Both the position numbers and the translations under genes were made by a program. Source: Folioceros fuciformis (taxonomy: Eukaryota). Taken from it: a stretch of 20,000 nucleotides of DNA. Location of the stretch: NCBI GenBank assembly GCA_049999805.1, contig JBNGIO010006348.1:74554-94553 (forward strand), read 5' to 3'. The first letter of the stretch is position 1. Every line of letters starts with the position of its first letter. Shown in pieces: positions 3,957 through 18,552 of the stretch. The notes beneath the pieces were generated by a model. It was not told the DNA's origin. It saw only the letters and a program-made list of their open reading frames with translations, and searched no databases.

Positions 3957-5013
3957 TCATGCAAGGCCGATAGTTTCTAGACCGCCCAGTCTAAGGCCAG
4001 GGTCATAATTGACGAAAAGCATGAACTCGTTGCCTAGCTTGTTTTGGTGCTGTGGCCTGAACTTGCAGGGATACGCATGTAAGAGCCCCCCAACGCGTTC
4101 TCTTTGAACAGCACCTGTAAAACCCAGAGCACGGACGTTTAGTGCATTTCAAGAAGACAAGGTTCAACGTGACTCCTTATAATGAAGTTCAATGCATTTC
4201 AAGAAGACAAGGTTCAACGTGACTCCTTATAATGAAGTTCAATGCATTTCACGGACAGATCCCACAATCCTCCCAGTGCGGAGAATTCGACAACAACCTG
4301 TGAGTAACAAGAGAATGGAATTTTCCGGCTCAACTGCAAGGTGCTTCATAGACTGCACAGTCTTTAGTAAGCACTCTTCACTCTGCATGGATTGAAACGC
4401 TTGTTAGAAAGGCTGACCACGACGAAGCAATGCGATTCTTCCATTCTGCAACTGACTGGGAAGTTGAGGCTATGGCCGAGATGATGGCTTGCCAAGTATG
4501 GAGGATCAGCCACGACAATGTGAAAAGCACCCTGGCATTCGGTTGGCACATCTTGAGGGAAGTTGTAGTCGTAGAAACTAAAATCATCGCCATACTTCGC
4601 AAACCGTCGGTCATACTCAAACAAATGAGCGTCTACTTCACGGTGCTTGTTCTGCATTCAAGACAATCCCATTCTACCCCTCAGAAATCAAGTCCGATAC
4701 AGTATAACCGTCAGAACCATCCAAAGTACAGCACCTTGAGTTCTACATAAAGAGAGGGACATGCGACACAGGCAATCCTCGCAGAATCGAAGGCCTTGCT
4801 AAGATGGTGGAGCTCCTCCGCGACGGTGGCTGCCGTGGCAGCATCATACCAGAATTGGCTCAAACGCCAATCCTCGACCACTATGTCCACAGTTCCGTCT
4901 TCGGCAACATCTGCCTTGTTTTCTTCCTCTTCTTTCCTCTCCGCAATCCATTCCCTCAGGGCAGCAAGAGTAGCGACGCTGAGCTGAGGCTCCTCATCGT
5001 CTTCCTCCGCCAT
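3957..5013 (-). CDS. EEF1AKMT1: EEF1A lysine methyltransferase 1 (N6AMT2/Efm5 family); exons 5013-4735, 4651-4493, 4382-4298, 4114-3957
   Basis: Spliced translation gives LSVATLAALREW, EDWRLSQFWYD, IACVACPSLY, LFEYDRRF, FYDYN.P, VVADPPYL|SEECL, LLLLTG|AVQ and FRPQHQNKLGNEF, all characteristic of this family. Stop TGA at 3959-3957. Confidence 0.92.
4143..4251. repeat. Perfect 50-bp tandem duplication (about 2.2 copies) in intron 3 of EEF1AKMT1
   Basis: TGCATTTCAAGAAGACAAGGTTCAACGTGACTCCTTATAATGAAGTTCAA occurs at 4143 and 4193; a third TGCATTTCA starts at 4243. Confidence 0.95.
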
Positions 5014-9582: not shown

Positions 9583-12143
9583 ATGGCACTTCTCTTGCCC
9601 TCTCAGCTCCAGCAGAGTCAGGTGGCCAAGGTGTCGTACATCGGCTCCTTGAAGCAATCGGAGGCGCTGCGCGGGCGACGCCGCCGGTCCTGCAAAATCA
9701 GAGCGGAAGGTGTGGGTGAGAGCCAGGGGCACTCTGCAGACCAGGCCGCGAGCTTCACTCCGGCGCCAAAGCCTGTGGACCGGAAGGGGGCGGTGAATCG
9801 AGCTGTGGTGGCCGAGAGAGTTGGAGGTGTTGAGGCGCGGCAGGAGGAGAGGTATCCTGGGTATGCTTCCTGGAACACTGTCAAGCAGCCGAGATGGGAA
9901 GGGGAGCTGGAACTGCAGGGAGAAATCCCGAAGTGGCTGGTACGTGACTTTTGTGGAGGTTAAGTAGGTGTCTTGAAGAAGGCGTGTCGTGAATTGAAGC
10001 GGGCTCAGGTTTGCGGTCTTGGTTGCTGATGCAGAGTGGAACGTATCTCCGAAACGGGCCTGGAAGCTGGAAGACTGGGAACAGGGAATTTGAGCACTTG
10101 TTCGACGGGTGAGTGGTGGAACTTTGCTTCTGACATCTGGTGGCTGCAATCTTCATTTCCTTCGGTAGGGAGTGATGGAGTGTGCGATGTGATCGGCCGC
10201 CATCCAGGTACTCAACCCTCGTCCGCCTCCACTTCGACAACGGGAAGCTGGTATGCGGGCACGCGCAGCTGCAATCGGAGGCATATAAGCAGGCCACCGA
10301 CAAGCAGCGCCCCATGTACCGAGAATTCAAGGCTGTCCCGGACGGGAACGTGTTCGAGCGGATAACTGAGCTCGCCGGGATGGCCACGGGCCACACTCTC
10401 ACCGACAACGCTAACACGGGAGTCATCATGTAAGCTGCCTGCATCCTGCACTCCTACAGCACGCCACGCCACCCCACGCTACGGCCACATTCTTCAAGCT
10501 TGAAACATTCGTGCTTGAAACTGATTCTTGATGCAGGCTCGGAGACGGACGAGTCCTGTGCTTGACGGAGACCATGAAAGGGACCATTCAGATTGATCCA
10601 AACACGCTGGAAACCATGGGAAAATTCACATACGAGGACGGATTCCAGGTCCTACTCTCGGACTGCCTTCTTCCATGCTGCTGCACAGCGCCAGCAAACA
10701 CACCTCCTACTCTAGTCCTAAGGCTTTTTTTTCTCTCATCCATACATTTGAATGGGTGGCCGCAGGGACTCGTGCACTCCGCTCATCCCTACGTAGACTC
10801 CAAGGAATTCATCACGCTGCTGCCGGACCTGATCAACCCTGGCTACACCGTCGTGCGCATGCCCGCCGGATCAAACACCAGGCAGCTTATTGGCAGGGTG
10901 AGCCACAACACCTCTTCCACCTTCCTCACTGTGTTCCTCACGGCTTGGACCGCATGCGGCAACACTTTCTTCATTTCTTTTGGCGCTCCGTCCAGGTCCC
11001 ATGCAAGGGCAAGGGCGCCCCGGGATGGGTGCACTCCTTCGCCGTGACGGAGAACTACATCGTGGTACCGGAGATGCCACTGCGCTACTCCGCCATGAAC
11101 CTCCTCAAGAGCGAGCCCTGCCCGTACTACAAATTCGAGTGGCTCCCTGACAGCGGAGCCTACATGCACATCCTCAACAGGAAAACCGGCGTCCTGGTAA
11201 CAAATTCTGCCACGCCTCTCCAATGCTCTTCCACTTCTCACCCGCCCTTCCCCGTCCCTCACTCCACCACACTTGCTCAGGAAGCGTCAGTGGAAGTTCC
11301 ACCTTTCGTCACCTTCCACTTCATCAACGCGTACGAGGAGCCCGCGGAGGACGGCAAGCCCGCGAGAGTGATCGCGGACTGTTGCGAGCACTACGCTAAC
11401 CCTGTCATTCTCCAGCGCCTGGAACTCCATGAGCTCCGAGCTTTCCCCGGCAAGGTTCTTCCCGACGCCAGGTACCGTACCACATTCCATCCCTCCCTCC
11501 TCCTCCTCTTCCTCCTCTTCCTCCTCCTCCTCCTCCTCCTCCTCCGCTCTTGTCATAAGTGCATGGACTCACCCTTTCCAAACCGCATGAATCCGCAGGG
11601 TTGGGAGGTTCACCATCCCGCTCGACGGGTCCAGCAAGGGCACATTGGACGCGGCTGTGCCGCCAGACGCGCACGGCAGGGGCCTGGACATGAACACTAT
11701 CAACGACAGCTTCAAGTCCAAGAAATATCGTTACGTCTACGCATCTGGAGCACACCGCCCTTGCAACTTCCCTAACAACCTAGTGAAGGTGGATTTGGTG
11801 GACAAGAGCGCCAAGACGTGGTACCACGACGGCGGCATCCCCACTGAGCCATTCTTCGTTCCAAGGCCCGGCGCGACCGAAGAAGACGACGGTTTGTACT
11901 CCCAACCGAGCCCCCTTCCACCCCGAGCCAAAACGGAACGGGACCAAAGCCCTGCAGGCTCTCAGCACACTCTACCGTTCCGTTTCACTGTGCGCAGGCG
12001 TGGTTATATCCCTTGTGAGCGACGACAGCGGCGGCGGCTTCGTCATCCTCTTCGATGGCCAGACGTTCGAGGAGATCGCCCGAGGGGACCTGCCCTACGG
12101 CCTGCCCTACGGACTGCATGGATGTTGGGTGCCAACCAAGTGA
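9583..12143 (+). CDS. CCD8: Carotenoid cleavage dioxygenase 8 (MAX4/RMS1/D10; carlactone synthase); exons 9583-9939, 10035-10108, 10208-10429, 10537-10648, 10766-10897, 10996-11196, 11281-11471, 11599-11891, 11998-12143
   Basis: CCD8-type motifs: W..V.Q.RWEGEL..QG.IP.WL|SGTYLRNGPG, HLFDGYSTLV, YREF, LTDNANTGVI.LGDGRV.CLTET, HSAHP, PGWVHSF.VTENY.VVPEMPLRY, TFHFINAYEE, DCCEH, RPCNFPN, PYGLPYGLHGCW. All four Fe-binding His are present, with an N-terminal transit-peptide-like extension. Confidence 0.95.
11491..11545. repeat. (CCT)n microsatellite in CCD8 intron 7
   Basis: Run of CCT/CTT triplets; it produces the spurious poly-Leu, poly-Glu and poly-Gly tracts in the ORF track. Confidence 0.95.
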
Positions 12144-12490
12144 TTGCGGAATGGCCAAGCGTGCCGCCGTCACCTTTGTTTCTAATGTACATTTGTCGTA
12201 TTTGGCTTCAAAGTTATCATAGTTTGTTAGACCCAATCGGGTCGTCTTTTTGTCTTAGAAATTTGAGAAAACTTCGATTTATGGATTTTATACTAAGTTT
12301 TTTTTTCTTTTTTCCCTTTGGAGGAGTTAGCATGTGCTTACAAAAATTGTATCACATGTACTTTGATTATTAATAATACATAGTTCTTTATTCATCTATT
12401 CTCAAGATAGTCAATTGAGACATTCTGAAATAAGGTTGGTGAGGGAAGCTCAGAACTATGTTGGGTCTCTAGCTCTAGCTAGAACTCATA

Positions 12491-12792
12491 TGTAATTTCT
12501 TACAAAAATATTCAAAAATGGCTTATTATTGAGACTTATCACTATAAGTTCACCAAGAGTTGAATGGCGAGTCTTTTCGACCCTATGCTCACATGGCATG
12601 AGGTGAGTCCTCCAACTTTTCATGAGATGCGAAAGAAAAAAGAGAAAAGAGAAGTTGTAGCTCCAACAGCCGAATGGCCTCAACCCTCTATCTCATTTGT
12701 TTGTTAATGAGTTTTTTCAAGAAGGCTTTCATCCTTGGGCAAGCATTGCCTATGGTTATGGACCCGTTGGTGGCAATAGTTCCATGAGGCCA
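12491..12792. repeat. Left copy of a ~300-bp direct repeat (TG...CA termini)
   Basis: Aligns end to end with 14267-14563; by hand about 30 substitutions and about 4 small indels (roughly 85-90% identity). Confidence 0.95.
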
Positions 12793-13720
12793 AAACTGAA
12801 GTTCAATATGAGTACCCACTTGCTCTCGGATGAAATGGTATTATTGTATGTCGATATACTTTGTCCTTGAGTGATATTTGGGATCCTTCTCTAGTGCCAT
12901 GCTGCCCTAGCTATTAATATACACCACTATAGGGGAGGGTTGCTCGAATCCTAAGCCTTTTACAAAAGCTTGAAACCATATAACTTCTTTGCTAACCATT
13001 GTCAAAGACATACATTCAACTTCACTACTAGAGAGGGCTACGGTTGGTTGCTACTTGGACTTCCAACTGATTGCTCCTCCGTCCAACTTAAAGACATACC
13101 TTGAAGTTTATCACCTATCGCTTAAGTTACCTCCCTAATCAGCATGTGACATTATGTTTGTGCCCAACCAAAACATTGGAAGCTCCAACTAGAAGGTTAG
13201 GCCCAACTCCTACTATCAACTGTAGATCCTTAGTACCTTGTAAGTATCGAAAAACAAGTTTTACTACAGCCTAGTGCTCAAGAGCAGGATTGCTAACAAA
13301 CTACGAAACATAGCTAATTGAGGACCCTAGGTCACCACGAGTCATCAAACAATAAACAAGGCTGCCCACAACACTTTGATAAGGCACTTAGGCCATGAAC
13401 TCTTGCTCCTCATAGCTAAGGGGATGAAGTCTCTACATAAGCTTGTTACCAATTATGGGCAAGTGTTTGCCCATAATCCACACCAGAAAGTTAGGCATAC
13501 CCTTTTGCCACAAGAGGAGCCTTGTATCTTGAGATACTTCCATCAAAAGCACGCTTGAGTTTTAAAACCCATTTGCACCCCCACTACTTCTTGACCTTCA
13601 AGGAGGTCAACCAACTTCCATGTCCCCTTCTTAATGAGAGCATCATACTCAGCTTCAATAGCATGCTTCCATGCTTCCACATCAGGGTAGTTCAAAGCTT
13701 TTGCAAGAGTCAAGGTTCTA
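12793..13720 (-). mobile_element. Degenerate Ty1/copia pol remnant (RT N-terminus, RT C-terminus, RNase H) with the RT catalytic core deleted
   Basis: Minus-strand translation across stops and frameshifts: EP.TLAKAL...AWKHAIEAEYDALIKKGTWKLVDL...VG/CKWVLKLKRAFDGSISRYKAPLVAKGYA*LSGVDYGQTLA; then EEQEFMA*VPYQSVVGSLVY...NPALEH*AVVKLVFRYLQGT; then AD*GG...YVFKLDGGAISWKSK*QPTVALSSSEVE...KYHSRTK/YIDI..HFIREQV. These are classic copia motifs. Confidence 0.93.
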
Positions 13721-13805
13721 GGTCTAATACATCATCTACATATGTTTGCAAACTCTCAAGAGCTTTCTATGATGCTTTCCACCACGAGTGCTCCACCAGC
13801 AAAGG

Positions 13806-13985
13806 CAGTTGGAGGTGAAGTTGGGCTAGGGCTACCATCATGGATATCTTCCTATTCATTGCATAACAGTTGGAGCTGAAGTTGGGCTAGGGCTACCATC
13901 ATGGCTATCTTCATGTTCATGACATAACAGTTGGAGGTGAAGTTGGGCTAGGGCTGCCATCATCGCTATATTTCTATTCATGGCA
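13806..13985. repeat. 61-bp tandem repeat, 3 diverged copies
   Basis: Unit CAGTTGGAG(G/C)TGAAGTTGGGCTAGGGCT(A/G)CCATCAT... starts at 13806, 13867 and 13928. Confidence 0.95.
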
Positions 13986-14266
13986 GATGTTAAGAGGTTG
14001 CTCAATAGGCTATTCCAATCCATCCAAATGAGAATCCTAACTGTGTGAGATACCTCCAGACTGCTACACAAGACACGTCGCTAGATGATGATTAAGAGAT
14101 GAACGAACACTTATACTGGTTGGTGCTAGTGATCACAACACAATGCACATGGGCAACCATGTGCTCGCCTATGATTAGCACCCATGTGCCTACTATACTT
14201 ATTGCCTAAAGAAGGAAGCCTATGTTAACGCTGTTCAACAGAGCCCTTGCTAAAGCCCAGCGCAGA

Positions 14267-14563
14267 TGCAATTTCTCACAAAAATATTCGAAAATGTCTT
14301 ATTATTAAGACTTATCACTATAAGTCCACCACGAGCTGAAAGCGAGTCTTTTCGATCCTACGCTCACATGTCATGAGGGCGGGTCCTCCAACTTTTCATG
14401 AGATGGGAAAGGGAAAAGAGAAGCTGTAGCTCCCATAGCCGAATGACCTCGGCCCTCTATCTCATTTGTTTGTTAACGAGTTTTTTCAAGAAGGCTTTTA
14501 TCCTTTGGCAAGCATTGGCTATATGGTCGTGGACCCGTTGGTGACAGTAGTTCCGTGAGGCCA
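14267..14563. repeat. Right copy of the ~300-bp direct repeat; forms the proximal promoter/5' UTR of prfC
   Basis: TGCAATTTCTCACAAAAATA...GTTCCGTGAGGCCA; the final A is the first base of the prfC ATG. Confidence 0.93.
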
Positions 14564-17500
14564 TGGCTGCGATCGGAGCTCTGGCTCCTTCGCAGTTACT
14601 CGTATCTCCGTCTTCGTGCAAGCTATACGAGAACAGATACAAGGTTGCTGCCGGCTGCAGTGGCGCATGTCAGTCCAGGAGAATTGCCGGAGGACTAGTG
14701 CTCCATGTGGATGTGACAGAGAGGAGGCCGTGGCGGAGAAAATGCGTGTTTCTGGAAGCCGCACCTGTGACGGATGTGCGGCCAGACGAGGAGGCTGCGG
14801 AAGGGAGCTGGGACGATGAGCATGCCAGGAACGAGGAGGGAGCTCTGGCTCAAATCCACACGGAGGTAGAGGGCCGGGAGGATCCAGCAGTGCAGAAGTT
14901 GGAGAGTGACGGCGACCGGCTAGGGTCGGGAGGAGATAAAGGCAATGAGGATGGGGATTTGCTTTCTCCTCAAGCTCTGGCCAGGGAGGTGGCTAGAAGG
15001 CGCAACTTCGCCATCATTTCTCATCCTGATGCGGGAAAAACTACTCTTGTAAGCTGAGAGTTTTGAGGATGTGACTGGAATCTGGTGCCGTTGGAGTTTC
15101 ACCGGGTTCACTTTTACGATGTGTGGAGCAGACTGAGAAGCTGCTTCTCTATGGAGGAGCGATTCAGGAAGCAGGTGCTGTGAAGGCCAGGAGGTCTGCT
15201 CGTCATGCAACTTCTGATTGGATGGAGCTCGAGAAACAGAGAGGTGAGAGGAGGTTGTCACCGTTGCCAGTGTGTGGTGGCTGCGAGGAAGCTTGCGGGT
15301 ATGCGGAAGCTGATTCCTTTGTTTTATTTTTTCTGTTTGGTTAAGGTAGGTATATCAATCACGTCAACGGCGATGGTTTTTGAAACGAAGGGATATCAGA
15401 TTACGCTGCTCGACACTCCGGGGCATCAGGTTCGTTCACTCGCTCAGGGTCGGTCCTGTACGCGCGCTGAGTGCTTTTCTGGAAGCAGGGTAGTGCCTCT
15501 GGTAAAGGAGAGCTTTCTGAGGACCGGGTGTGGCACTGTTGCAGGATTTCGGAGAGGATACTTACAGGTGAGCCTGTACGCCTGGCTCTGCACTTGGCAA
15601 TGTAGGCCATCTGTGGTGTTCACTGTGTTCACATTGTTTGTGTACAATTTGAGCATTTTGCAGGACGCTTGCAGCTGCAGATAACGCTGTCATGTTGGTG
15701 GATGGGGGCAAAGGGCTGGAGCCACAAACAAGGAAGCTGTTTGAGGTAAGTTGGATAAGAGGAATAGCAGCAAAATTGGGGCAATAAGAGGACTCGTGTC
15801 TTGTTGATGAACTGATGGGCATTCCTGATTCTCCTGACAGGTTTGCAGAATGCGTAAGCTGCCAATATTTACTTTCATGAATAAGATGGACCGTCCTGCC
15901 TTAGCGCCATTGGAGCTCCTAGATCAAATTGAAAAGGAGTTTGGTCTTGCTACCTATCCGATGAACTGGCCGATTGGATCAGGTGACAGGTATGCAGAGG
16001 ATTGCCACTGCTGGCGCGCATGCCTTTGGTGTCATTTAGCAGCTGGTCTTCTGAGGGCAGGTCACATAACTGGGCCACGAATGAATGCAGGTTCTTGGGT
16101 GTTGTCCACAGACCTCGTCAAGAAGTTCATCTCTTTGATAAGGGCGAAAAACATGGAACGAAAGAAGCAATAGTGCAAGTAATCCCCTGGGGTGATTCTC
16201 GTCTTGAGGAGATTATTCCAGGAGATCTCTTCCAACAACTGAAGGTATAGCATGCATTATGGTTGGCCTTGGTTTTCCAGCTTCTTTTGTGAAATGTGCT
16301 GAAAGTTTCATTTCCTCAGGAGGAGATTGAGCTTCTGGAGGAGCTGACACCACCATTGGACTTGAATCTTGTGCATTCTGGAGATTTGTCCCCAGTTTTC
16401 TTTGGTAGTGCAATGAACAATTTTGGGGTAAGATTGCTATTTCCTGCTGTCGAACTCTACAGTCAATTGAGGATGATTTGGGCATTGACTTTCCTTCGGA
16501 TCTACATGCCTTTTGTAAAGGAGGGTTCATGTGTCGTATATTTTTCAGGTTGAGCTCTTCTTAGATAGCTTCCTTGAGTGTGCCATTCGACCAGGCAAGC
16601 ATCATAGTGACGCGGGAGAGGTCCTCCCTGAGTATCCCCACTTCACGGGCTTTGTCTTCAAGGTAACATTGCTGTGCATTCCATGGCCGTTCCCTTGTCA
16701 GGTGGAGTGTCCTTGCTAGAGATGCATTTGTTTTGACCTAGCAGTGCTGTGGAGTGCTATAAGTCACGGTGAGGCAATGACCCTGCAGGCAGATAGAACG
16801 ATGGTGAGATATCGTTTCAGGTCTCAAGGCCATGAGCCAATACACATCCTGATTGGTTCTCGTCAACGTTGTCCCTGGCATTTTATCTTTTGAAGGGTAG
16901 AGCCGACTTAAAAAGTCTGAGTCTAAGATGCATCTAATCTGGGGTCTCTCTTTGGAGACAATGGCAGCTCCAATGAGAGCATAGGAAAGAGCCCAACACA
17001 ATTGTTTTGGCAGAGTTTGGCGAATGTTTTTGCTGATACCACCTCATTGAGCGTCCCAAGTCTGGCGATGTTAGCATCGTGATATCTTTGGTCAACAATC
17101 GTTGGAGGCTCTGACGCACTTGAGTGTTTTACGAATTGAAGGATGATGCAATTCGAGGATCATGTTTAGAAAATTTCTTGTGACTTGGGGTTCCGTAATC
17201 CTTGCTTATGGTTCTTACCTAAGTCTGTTGTTGTCCACATGGTGGATTCAGTTGCAAGCGAATATGGACCCAAAGCATAGAGACAAGGTTGCCTTTGTAA
17301 GGGTCTGTTCAGGTTTGGACTCGTTCTCGCACCGCTGTCCTTGGGCATTGGAGGGCCTTGAACACAGTACTGACCACCTGTTTCTGACAGGTCAGTTCAG
17401 TAAAGGCATGAAAGTCCAGCTTGCTCGAACAGGCAAAGTATTGTCGTTAACAAGACCACAGAAAATGTTTGCACAAGATCGCTCTACTGTTGAAACTGGT

Positions 17501-18552
17501 TTTGCGGGGGATGGTAGGTACTTGGGCTCGTCCTTGCCAATGACTTCAGATGTTTGCGCATGTCTGGCTGTGGATGGTCTTTGACTTGGTTCCCTCGGGC
17601 CAGTGATTGGATTGAACAACCCAAATGCCTTCTGCATTGGCGACACGCTGTACACTGGCCCAAGGAGGACTTTCCCAGGAATCCCATCGTTTTCTCCGGA
17701 ACTGTTCTGTTACATGAGGAACCCAAATCCATCGAAGTACAAGCAGTTCCAGAAGGGGATAAATGAGTTGCTCGGTGAAGGTGCTGTACAGGTGCGTCTT
17801 TGTGAGGACCACGTTCTAGGTTCAGGCAGGTGAATATGCAAAGCTTGTCCTTCAGTGGTAAGCTATGAAAGCGGTGTACGTTGAGTGCTTTCTCAATATT
17901 TGGCTATTTGTTTTACGGCAGGCACTGTTTTCCGTTGATTCTGGAAGAACTGATCCAATTTTGGCAGCGGTGGGGCAGCTGCAATTTGAGGTATCCACAT
18001 CGGTTCCGTCCCTTAAGGATAGTTTCCCTTGAAACTGGGATATGAAATTATGCGTTTGGCTGCAGGTGGTACAGTACCGCATGCAGAGTGAATACAACGT
18101 AGAGACCCAACTTGAGCCTCTTGGATTCAGTGTGGCACGGTGGGTGTCTGGAGGTTGGCCCGCCCTCGAGAGAGTCGGCAAAATCTACAACTGTGCAACG
18201 GTGAAGGATCGGGTTAGTCTATGTGGGATTCTGTCATTCACTGATTGTTAGCCTTGTAGCCTTCGGGAAAGCGTCCAGGTTCTGAGGCACTGTTTTTAAT
18301 TTGATGCAGTGGGGGCGCCCTGTTTTGCTATTTCGAAATGAATGGAATGTAACTCAGCTACTGGTTCGTTCCATCCCACGTGTTTCCCACCATAAAATCT
18401 TCGAAGCTATGGCTATGGCACAAGTTGGAATACACTCGTACACGCTGGATGATGGTCTGACTTGTTGCACTTTTCCCTGACAGGGTGATCATCCAGAGAT
18501 AGGTGAACTAGCTCCCTACGCTCTTCCTCCGGAGGAGCCTGTCCGGAGATAA
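14563..18552 (+). CDS. prfC: Bacterial-type peptide chain release factor 3, probably plastid-targeted; 16 exons: 14563-15048, 15132-15243, 15350-15429, 15545-15567, 15664-15745, 15841-15989, 16091-16244, 16320-16427, 16549-16662, 17252-17312, 17391-17513, 17604-17791, 17922-17990, 18066-18212, 18310-18363, 18484-18552
   Basis: RF3-specific motifs: [137 protein letters not shown]. All introns are GT-AG and in phase; about 140-aa N-terminal extension. Confidence 0.95.

Follow-up and report, generated by a model that had tools for sequence, protein, structure and literature searches.

A repeat pair around copia debris at the prfC start codon: possibly an LTR mimic made by break repair

In Folioceros fuciformis, a Ty1/copia remnant enclosed by two TG...CA-bounded direct repeats lies directly in front of prfC. 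The question is whether an LTR has become the upstream region of a housekeeping gene, or whether the gene's own upstream DNA has been duplicated around transposon debris so that it only looks like an LTR pair. We analysed a window of 20 kb (the whole stretch of 20,000 nucleotides, whose numbering is used throughout), in which the following features surround the repeats.

10532-12142, plus strand: 3' exons of a predicted carotenoid cleavage dioxygenase (CCD; RPE65 family) gene, stop TGA at 12140-12142
12143-12486, no strand: flank from the CCD stop to the left copy; distal 138 bp CpG-normal, proximal 206 bp (12281-12486) CpG-free
12487-12792 (12491-12792 in the initial annotation), plus strand: left copy of the repeat unit, CpG-depleted and decaying
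12793-13830, minus strand: Ty1/copia pol debris, from tblastn with copia relatives and from ORF pieces
13806-13985, no strand: 61-bp tandem repeat (3.0 copies, 88% matches, TRF score 290), overlapping the upper edge of the copia homology
13831-14262, no strand: uncharacterised stretch from the pol debris to the right copy, CpG density climbing towards the gene
14263-14563 (14267-14563 in the initial annotation), plus strand: right copy, the immediate upstream 301 bp of prfC, CpG-normal
14563-15048, plus strand: predicted prfC exon 1, with the ATG at 14563, an N-terminal extension of ~125 residues and then the start of the G domain
14563-18549, plus strand: RF3/prfC-like gene, whole and apparently intact, from tblastn with Marchantia peptide chain release factor 3 (P0013)

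By homology, the gene on the right is an RF3/prfC homologue. Residues 140-683 of the 683 residues of Marchantia P0013 map in 10 HSPs to 14944-18549 (tblastn), and the relatives of the gene are named RF3 and carry PF00009, PF16658, PF03144, and PF22042. The Pfam domain GTP_EFTU is matched at residues 149-167 of exon 1 with an E-value of 0.0016, which is below the cut-off because an intron splits the domain. The N-terminal extension is lineage-specific: the tblastn HSP in exon 1 (14944-15048) begins only at 14944, and none of 25 RF3-type relatives, which cover only 16-48% of the query, aligns ahead of the G domain. The gene on the left can be assigned at the family level to the carotenoid cleavage dioxygenases, given the Pfam RPE65 matches of three of its ORFs (E 2.8e-18, 9.3e-19, and 1e-05) and a match to the carotenoid cleavage dioxygenase structure PDB 6vcf (E 2.5e-11). 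Joined straight to ATGGCT, the CCD-side flank would read ...CTCATATGGCTGCG....

Repeat finding, MAFFT, and blastn agree on two direct copies of the unit (left 12487/12491-12792, right 14263/14267-14563), as the initial annotation had described them, and reveal no third copy elsewhere in the 20-kb window. The copies are 306 and 301 bp long, start 1776 bp apart, and share 89% identity (blastn E 2.7e-101; 86.1% over 309 columns if gaps are counted). Their alignment comprises 298 aligned positions with 265 matches and 33 mismatches (26 transitions and 7 transversions), and 11 gap columns in four indels, corresponding to a K2P divergence of 0.122. Because the copies are 11% diverged and differ by four indels, an assembly duplication artefact is an unlikely source of the pair. 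The similarity ceases sharply, on the right at 12792/14563 and on the left at 12487-12491/14263-14267; beyond base 14563 the agreement between the copies falls to chance, at 4 of 12 positions (read from the sequence and the alignment). The last base of the right copy, 14563, is the A of the ATG at 14563-14565, exactly as noted in the initial annotation, and the right copy contains eight upstream ATGs on the plus strand. A TG at 12491/14267 and a CA at 12792/14563 are present in both copies. These termini are weak evidence for an LTR here, because the left edge is fuzzy by 4 bp, with similarity at three of the four bases preceding the TG (CATA vs CAGA), and the final CA is no more than positions -1 and +1 around the start codon. 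The unit lacks terminal inverted repeats, and it can therefore be rejected as a MITE. A SINE or tRNA-derived origin finds no support (ARAGORN 0 genes, Rfam no relevant match), poly(A) or poly(T) is not seen at the ends of the unit (read from the sequence), and the frames of the unit match neither Pfam nor the protein atlas. Searches with predicted proteins as a proxy for further copies (0 of 21 and 0 of 46 candidates scoring, and no usable match in a third search) are uninformative on the genomic copy number.

The DNA next to the left copy is what remains of a copia pol. All 138 copia-type proteins, collected at E <= 0.001 as relatives of a 62-aa ORF, match 12787-13830, with every one of the 332 HSPs on the minus strand (tblastn, best E 2.9e-31), which bears out the copia debris of the initial annotation. 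The profile match has an i-E of 2.2e-09; Pfam detects nothing on the short ORF pieces. The debris is collinear, with the pre-RT region and the RT N-terminus at 13830-13491 and the post-RT region and RNase H at 13387-12796, and is without RT core, gag, protease, integrase, and RNase H tail. It has decayed to about six frame changes plus stops per kb. Its RNase H breaks off flush at the left copy, as claimed before and confirmed by the profile tests: the profile matches from 12909 to 12796 only (profile positions 3-40 of 80), the tail (positions 41-80) is absent from all six frames of 12000-14800, and a copia profile of 15 polyproteins aligns no further than the IELQ position. The 3' end of the fragment is ~30-60 codons short of the end of pol, where the 3' LTR region would be expected to start.

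We considered whether the unit could itself be the 3' end of pol, since the reading frame of RNase H stays open for another 34 codons inside the left copy, up to a stop at 12688. This was rejected. Pairwise comparison with six copia tails is marginal, with 62-85 of 1000 shuffles scoring at least as high; the 34 codons add nothing to the profile (30.4 bits vs 31.9 bits for the head alone), shuffled tails reach or exceed the score of the observed tail in 620 of 1000 cases with the 15-polyprotein profile, and the conserved AD.LTK motif is absent from the extension. An insertion of the unit into pol, with the tail resuming beyond the left copy, was rejected as well: a profile search found no tail there, that is, no copia tail homology in the flank 12143-12486. 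On the other side, the stretch 13831-14262 has no tblastn match at E <= 0.1 and no gag, integrase, or leader signal. None of its 13 ORFs has a credible Pfam match (a single row at E 0.11, below the cut-off), and Rfam gives one row at chance level (E 6).

Beyond the repeat pair and TG...CA, the tested LTR hallmarks TSD, PBS, PPT, and RNase H tail all fail. The sequences directly outside the termini are TCATA and TGGCT, which match at one of five positions. Shifting both outer boundaries by up to 6 bp (13 x 13 combinations) yields no perfect TSD of at least 4 bp, and none of the 169 shifts yields a 5- or 6-bp TSD with one mismatch allowed. Matches of 3 bp occur at two of the 169 shifts, where ~2.6 are expected by chance (169/64, our own arithmetic), and a 3-bp ATG duplication that is present at both outer junctions was accordingly discarded as a TSD. 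A PBS was found at neither inner edge in either orientation, using one tRNA-iMet motif, which with up to three mismatches occurs 18 times in the window where 17.9 matches are expected; there is no TGG within 6 nt of either inner edge, and ARAGORN detects no tRNA gene in the window. The longest purine runs at the two candidate PPT sites are 4 and 3 nt, at or below the background median of 4. The initial annotation had reported the lack of all three signals, and it was right on each, for the PBS within the reach of that motif and the TGG check. True LTRs hidden in the uncharacterised stretches were rejected as well: there is no second candidate pair, and 12143-12486 bears no relation to 13831-14262, their score being reached or exceeded by 196 of 200 shuffles. 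Remnants of gag or of a leader next to the right copy were not detected by tblastn and Pfam.

The two copies differ strongly in their CpG content. The right copy keeps all 12 CpGs inferred for the unit (CpG o/e 0.82, compared with 0.76 for exon 1). The left copy is without eight of these 12, six of the eight being TG or CA, which is the signature of deamination, and has a CpG o/e of 0.40. The CpG-poor domain is confined to 12281-14228. At its left border the CpG o/e is 1.46 in 12143-12280, followed by 0 CpGs observed against 5.2 expected in 12281-12486, and upstream of the gene it falls gradually from the right copy through 14001-14200 (0.42) to 13801-14000 (0.10). Retention on one side and loss on the other suggest, from base composition, that the protected 5' zone of an expressed gene includes the right copy. 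This copy behaves like protected gene-proximal DNA, and this would be predicted whether the unit is an LTR or was copied by repair. As protection declines gradually away from the gene, the CpG asymmetry was dropped as a discriminator between these two models.

The best explanation, although we hold it only tentatively and would not call it probable, is that one double-strand-break repair event copied 302 bp upstream of prfC together with a copia fragment as filler and thereby mimicked an LTR pair. The ~302-bp unit would be the proximal upstream DNA of prfC itself, serving as promoter and/or short leader. A double-strand break may have occurred at the upstream edge of the unit, now the 12486/12487 junction. 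In synthesis-dependent copying, the broken end would have read the unit off an intact template up to the A of the start codon, switched template to a copia element elsewhere, copied ~1.0-1.5 kb of pol in antisense, and then been joined to the other broken end. The product would have the order flank, unit copy, copia filler, original unit, and prfC. As the gene would never have been without its native upstream DNA, the event would have been near neutral. Later, the upstream copy, the filler, and ~200 bp of flank would have become methylated and decayed via C-to-T changes, while the gene-adjacent copy would have stayed in the unmethylated 5' zone, presumably still holding the transcription start. 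We count for this model that the copia piece is fragmentary and ends at an arbitrary point, that the right copy looks like native gene-proximal DNA with respect to its CpGs, and that a single event would suffice without displacing the upstream DNA of the gene. The initial annotation had leaned the same way, and this lean agrees with the missing TSD, PBS, and PPT, the flush RNase H, and the lack of another LTR pair; its two models are still the two serious ones.

Repair of this kind is a documented kind of event and not a new principle. The available portions of Pace et al. 2009 (PMC2671141) describe repair-mediated duplications with a mean of 162 bp and a maximum of 619 bp, with donors on average 1.2 kb and rarely more than 5 kb away, and they include chimeric insertions from two donors and retrotransposon cDNA among the captured DNA. 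The 302-bp unit and the donor-copy distance of 1.78 kb fall within these ranges, and, as in those duplications, one copy is butted on broken transposon sequence and there is neither poly(A) nor a transposon-type TSD. In contrast to those cases, which are from vertebrates and for which these portions give filler of 1-68 nt, the filler at the breakpoints here spans 12793-14262, the non-proximal part amounts to ~1.5 kb, and microhomology is not visible at the junctions. In plants, filler of the SDSA type was found in 38 indels (12.7%) between the barley cultivars Barke and Morex, according to the available part of PMC3706897. The likeness lies in the non-homologous segments at plant break sites, attributed to ectopic template copying; the flanking 300-bp duplications and the TE-derived kilobase filler at prfC are unlike the barley cases as far as described there. 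Given these precedents, and with LTR-derived promoters being well known too, the earlier statement that either model is unusual is too strong.

A true but heavily eroded Ty1/copia element in minus orientation, inserted on or beside the start codon of prfC and with the unit as its LTR, is a serious if doubtful alternative. It would require that gag-protease-integrase, the RT core, the PBS, and the pol tail with the PPT were deleted and that the TSD disappeared through recombination or a deletion in the flank. The promoter, the leader, and the A of the ATG of prfC would now come from the right (5') LTR, read antisense to the element. LTR-derived promoters are well known, also in plants. In plant genomes, repair events with kilobase filler are far rarer than eroded LTR elements, and the prior is therefore on the side of such a remnant. 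The locus resembles an eroded element with a co-opted LTR in having TG...CA repeats around collinear copia pol, one of them directly upstream of a gene, with RNase H towards the would-be 3' LTR copy. For a real element a pol end in this position next to one copy is expected, while we estimate ~5-10% for a random fragment. In addition, pol has decayed about as far as the divergence between the copies would predict, the CpG retention of the right copy fits an LTR co-opted into an active promoter, and excising 12491-14563 leaves ...CTCATA joined to TGGCTGCG, which restores the ATGGCT start (read from the sequence). The sharp ends of similarity, together with the TG start and CA end, are as in true LTRs by the criterion given in the available part of 10.1101/137141, which also states that a full TSD can be missing through recombination or mutation. 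The repair model further has to cope with the absence of evident microhomology at 12792/12793 and 14262/14263 (read from the sequence), and with copying that stopped exactly at the A of the ATG, an unexplained coincidence. The eroded element, however, calls for three or more additional, separate events, and in two of these an endpoint must coincide exactly with an inner LTR edge: RNase H is cut flush at one copy, and the other copy is followed directly by sequence that is not a PBS. Also against it, no boundary shift yields a TSD, and the DNA next to the putative 5' LTR shows no sign of gag or of a leader; it would further differ from known co-opted elements in lying antisense to the gene. The insertion would in one step have pushed the native promoter of prfC, a conserved single-copy gene for an organellar translation factor, several kb away, and hence the LTR would have been needed from the first moment, in antisense. 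The copia piece is also the sole TE in a gene-dense 20-kb window, which argues against nested insertions of the same family having made the flush edges. That the unit is a true copia LTR and that the antisense 5' LTR provides the entire promoter, the leader, and the first base of the ATG of prfC, having wholly escaped methylation, appears unlikely to us.

The unit could also be another, unrecognised dispersed repeat, either a solo LTR of a different family or a short unclassified element, whose two copies go back to independent insertions or belong to a TE cluster, but this is improbable. According to the available part of 10.1101/137141 on LTR_retriever, false positives are mainly due to solo LTRs and to neighbouring non-LTR repeats, and pairs with extended similarity or without TSD account for 42.6% of raw LTR candidates. 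The pair at prfC is like these false candidates in lacking an identical TSD, on which Module 3 of that program rejects them, and unlike the typical false pairs described there in that its similarity stops at the repeat edges, except for three of the four left bases. The left copy is flanked by GAACT and AAACT (4/5 matches). At the same unit boundaries, however, the right copy has CAGCG and TGGCT (2/5), its only 4/5 flank match needs a right end shifted by 3 bp, and the flank similarity of the left copy is near the chance level for the offsets compared (own estimate, p ~0.2). TSDs of the individual copies were thus rejected as having inconsistent boundaries and being near chance. The missing terminal inverted repeats, tRNA-like or Rfam signals, and Pfam or protein-atlas matches likewise speak against such an element, and two insertions in the same orientation 1.5 kb apart, flush with the pol break and with the ATG, would be a double coincidence. 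Whichever model implies a new right junction could be overlaid by the idea that this junction made the ATG, with the A from the unit and the TG from prfC, after loss of an ancestral start. This would account for a boundary that coincides exactly with the start codon. The ATG at 14563 is the sole in-frame Met of the exon-1 frame of 164 codons, and a stop lies five codons upstream, so that a rearrangement removing an upstream start would need a start here. Yet the N-terminal extension is no shorter than in relatives, with the G-domain motif beginning at about residue 143 here and at about residue 153 in the Marchantia protein. In addition, MAAIG... in an ATGGC context resembles what we take to be an ordinary plant transit-peptide start, and we consider a junction-made ATG very improbable.

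For annotation, the locus is a clean example of a structure whose TG...CA ends and pol content would lead an LTR finder to report an element although TSD, PBS, and PPT fail, and masking it as a transposon would hide the sole upstream DNA of a conserved gene. Under either model, LTR or repair, the two copies form an internally controlled pair of the same sequence and the same age, 1.5 kb apart. The copy at the active gene start has kept all CpGs and the copy on the side of the TE debris has lost most of them; therefore, the reach of promoter-proximal methylation protection becomes measurable at prfC. If the unit is an LTR, a housekeeping gene of organellar translation would be a further case in which the promoter has been replaced completely, and a true copia LTR would provide a natural paired experiment on how proximity to a gene shields one LTR while its twin lost two-thirds of its CpGs. 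The value of the prfC locus is that of a well-characterised example.

Two direct repeats of about 302 bp lie between the carotenoid cleavage dioxygenase (CCD) gene and prfC at 12487-12792 and 14263-14563, as found concordantly by find_repeats, MAFFT, and blastn, and none of these detected a third copy of the unit elsewhere in the 20-kb window. The neighbouring genes are:

12140-12142, + strand: stop codon at the 3' end of the CCD gene (Pfam RPE65; PDB 6vcf, E 2.5e-11)
14563-18549, + strand: intact homologue of peptide chain release factor 3 (RF3/prfC), by similarity to RF3 proteins

The copies match at 265 of 298 aligned bases (blastn, E 2.7e-101) and differ by 26 transitions, 7 transversions, and four indels (K2P 0.122). 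The last base of the right copy is the A of the ATG at 14563-14565, the sole in-frame methionine in exon 1; a stop precedes it by five codons. The initial annotation had described this LTR-like pair around a copia remnant, with the right copy ending on the start codon, and its observation is confirmed in all particulars. The left copy also contains a perfect 8-nt inverted repeat extending to its final base (12675-12682 and 12785-12792, TGGCCTCA / TGAGGCCA), the first arm of which has mismatches in the right copy.

The prfC gene is nuclear and intron-rich. Its relatives comprise 25 RF3 proteins from bryophytes, a lycophyte, algae, and bacteria, and residues 140-683 of the 683 of a Marchantia RF3-named protein were placed on it as ten HSPs (tblastn). 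The N-terminal extension of about 125 residues has no detected similarity to anything, and none of the 25 relatives aligns with the gene product ahead of the G domain. Because the named eukaryotic relatives are bryophytes, a lycophyte, and green algae but include no seed plant, their distribution suggests that this lineage keeps an organelle-type RF3. The long, unbroken minus-strand ORF at 456-1889 (Pfam Vps62, E 5.3e-187) shows that the window is gene-dense. A 50-bp tandem duplication with 94% identity is found at 4134-4233, and a low-complexity GAA/CTC-type tract in the CCD gene region (11405-11568), which reads as poly-Glu, poly-Ser, or poly-Leu depending on the frame, is probably intronic.

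The debris between the copies is a remnant of a Ty1/copia pol. Its longest unbroken piece is a minus-strand ORF of 62 aa, for which an exhaustive HMMER search returned 138 copia-type relatives. By tblastn, all 138 match 12787-13830, where each of the 332 HSPs is on the minus strand. Only six weak copia HSPs (E 0.005-0.09) fall elsewhere in the window, in which no transposon protein homology was found beyond the debris. The order of the pieces is collinear, from pre-RT and the RT N-terminus over a gap in place of the RT core to post-RT and RNase H, and 13831-14262 has no recognisable content. At the upper edge of the homology (13806-13985) a 61-bp unit is repeated in tandem (3.0 copies, 88% matches). 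Since 61 is not divisible by three, the repeat either arose in an already dead coding frame or killed it.

The frame of RNase H (…YHFIREQVGTHIELQF) continues without a stop for another 34 codons into the left copy. For this reason, and because copia polyproteins still have 28-62 residues to go at this point, the supposed LTR was suspected to be the 3' end of pol. Six copia tails compared with this frame gave marginal results (62-85 of 1000 shuffles scored at least as high, against 556-940 in other frames). However, the alignment to a profile of 15 polyproteins extends no further than IELQ; with the tail included the score is 30.4 bits, compared with 31.9 for the head by itself, and a shuffled tail did equally well or better in 620 of 1000 cases. 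The conserved RNase H tail is absent from all six frames of 12000-14800. We therefore rejected this possibility: RNase H is cut flush at the left copy, as first described, and pol is not resumed past it.

Three hallmarks of an LTR element were said to be missing, and this holds for each of them. Over 169 combinations of outer-boundary shifts there is no perfect 4-bp target-site duplication (TSD), and none of 5 or 6 bp with one mismatch allowed; two 3-bp matches at the outer junctions, one of them ATG at both, are about what chance would give by our arithmetic. The tRNA-iMet motif of a primer-binding site (PBS) has 18 matches versus 17.9 expected, none at an inner edge. The best one near the repeats (14568-14579, + strand, three mismatches) is located just outside the right copy in prfC codons 2-6, where TGG directly follows the CA of the unit, and given the window-wide count we take it as a coincidence. 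At both candidate sites for a polypurine tract (PPT) the purine runs are 3-4 nt, which is background. No hidden real LTRs were found: the two uncharacterised stretches resemble neither each other nor the unit. Measured against the LTR_retriever criteria (10.1101/137141), the pair has sharp boundaries and TG...CA but lacks the TSD.

We tentatively prefer, at somewhat less than even probability, that the block (both copies and everything between them) is a repair-made mimic of an LTR element. A break would have occurred at the upstream edge of the proximal flank of prfC, and its repair would have copied first this flank and afterwards a copia template. A single event suffices, and it would explain the flush pol cut and the missing PBS, PPT, and TSD while leaving prfC undisturbed. 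What weighs against this model is that the ends are TG...CA, that the pol fragment lies close to the terminus, that the filler is large, that no microhomology is visible, and that the prior is low. Proximal duplication by repair with captured DNA is an already documented kind of event: in PMC2671141, such duplications have a mean of 162 bp and a maximum of 619, with donors about 1.2 kb away, and are in some cases two-donor chimeras, and DNA captured at breaks includes retrotransposon cDNA. For two barley cultivars, PMC3706897 gives 12.7% of indels with SDSA-type filler.

An eroded true copia element with the unit as its LTR is a serious but lesser candidate. It would account for the TG...CA ends, the sharply bounded repeats, and a collinear pol whose RNase H faces one of them, and the prior is high. 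However, several additional events would be required, including loss of the TSD and two deletions that each stop precisely where an LTR begins on its inner side, and a conserved gene must have survived the abrupt swap of its whole promoter for an antisense LTR. Neither terminal inverted repeats nor tRNA-like or Rfam signals nor Pfam or protein-atlas matches were found for the unit; that it is another, unrecognised repeat is improbable. Looking for further genomic copies indirectly, by way of predicted proteins, gave no hits, which says nothing about how many copies of the unit exist. The exact coincidence of its end with the ATG is explained by neither the repair nor the true-LTR model, and a start codon created by the junction is possible but unsupported. 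The structure is real. It most likely mimics an LTR element through a mechanism of a known kind; otherwise it would be an ordinary eroded copia whose LTR was co-opted.

That the two copies had different fates is a new observation. They share four CpGs; a further eight are confined to the right copy, and the left copy has none of its own (binomial p 0.008). At six of these eight sites the left copy reads TG or CA, the signature of deamination, and overall it has A/T against G/C in the right at 22 sites, with the reverse at 10 (p 0.05).

CpG observed/expected ratios (o/e) across the interval
Flank 12281-12486: 0.00 (0 vs 5.2 expected)
Left copy: 0.40
Debris: 0.27
Right copy: 0.82
prfC exon 1: 0.76

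CpG protection declines away from prfC, with o/e going from 0.82 to 0.42 to 0.10 upstream. The CpG-poor domain (12281-14228, o/e 0.0-0.4) begins about 200 bp upstream of the left copy and ends some 35 bp short of the right one, and its edges are not aligned with those of the block. As judged from base composition, the right copy is within the protected 5' zone of an expressed gene, which is presumably unmethylated. The flank upstream of the block is unlike an active promoter, which counts against a remote start and removal of the block by splicing. Because the right copy contains eight upstream ATGs (14266-14525, + strand), transcription of prfC probably starts within a few dozen to about 120 bases of its right end. 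The upstream ORFs include one of 48 codons from 14398 and one of 11 codons from 14523, the latter ending 5 nt before the main ATG, and the TA creating CTATATGG at 14517-14526 is missing from the left copy. The CpG result locates the working upstream region and not the origin of the unit, and the paired contrast between the copies is the most reusable result of this analysis.
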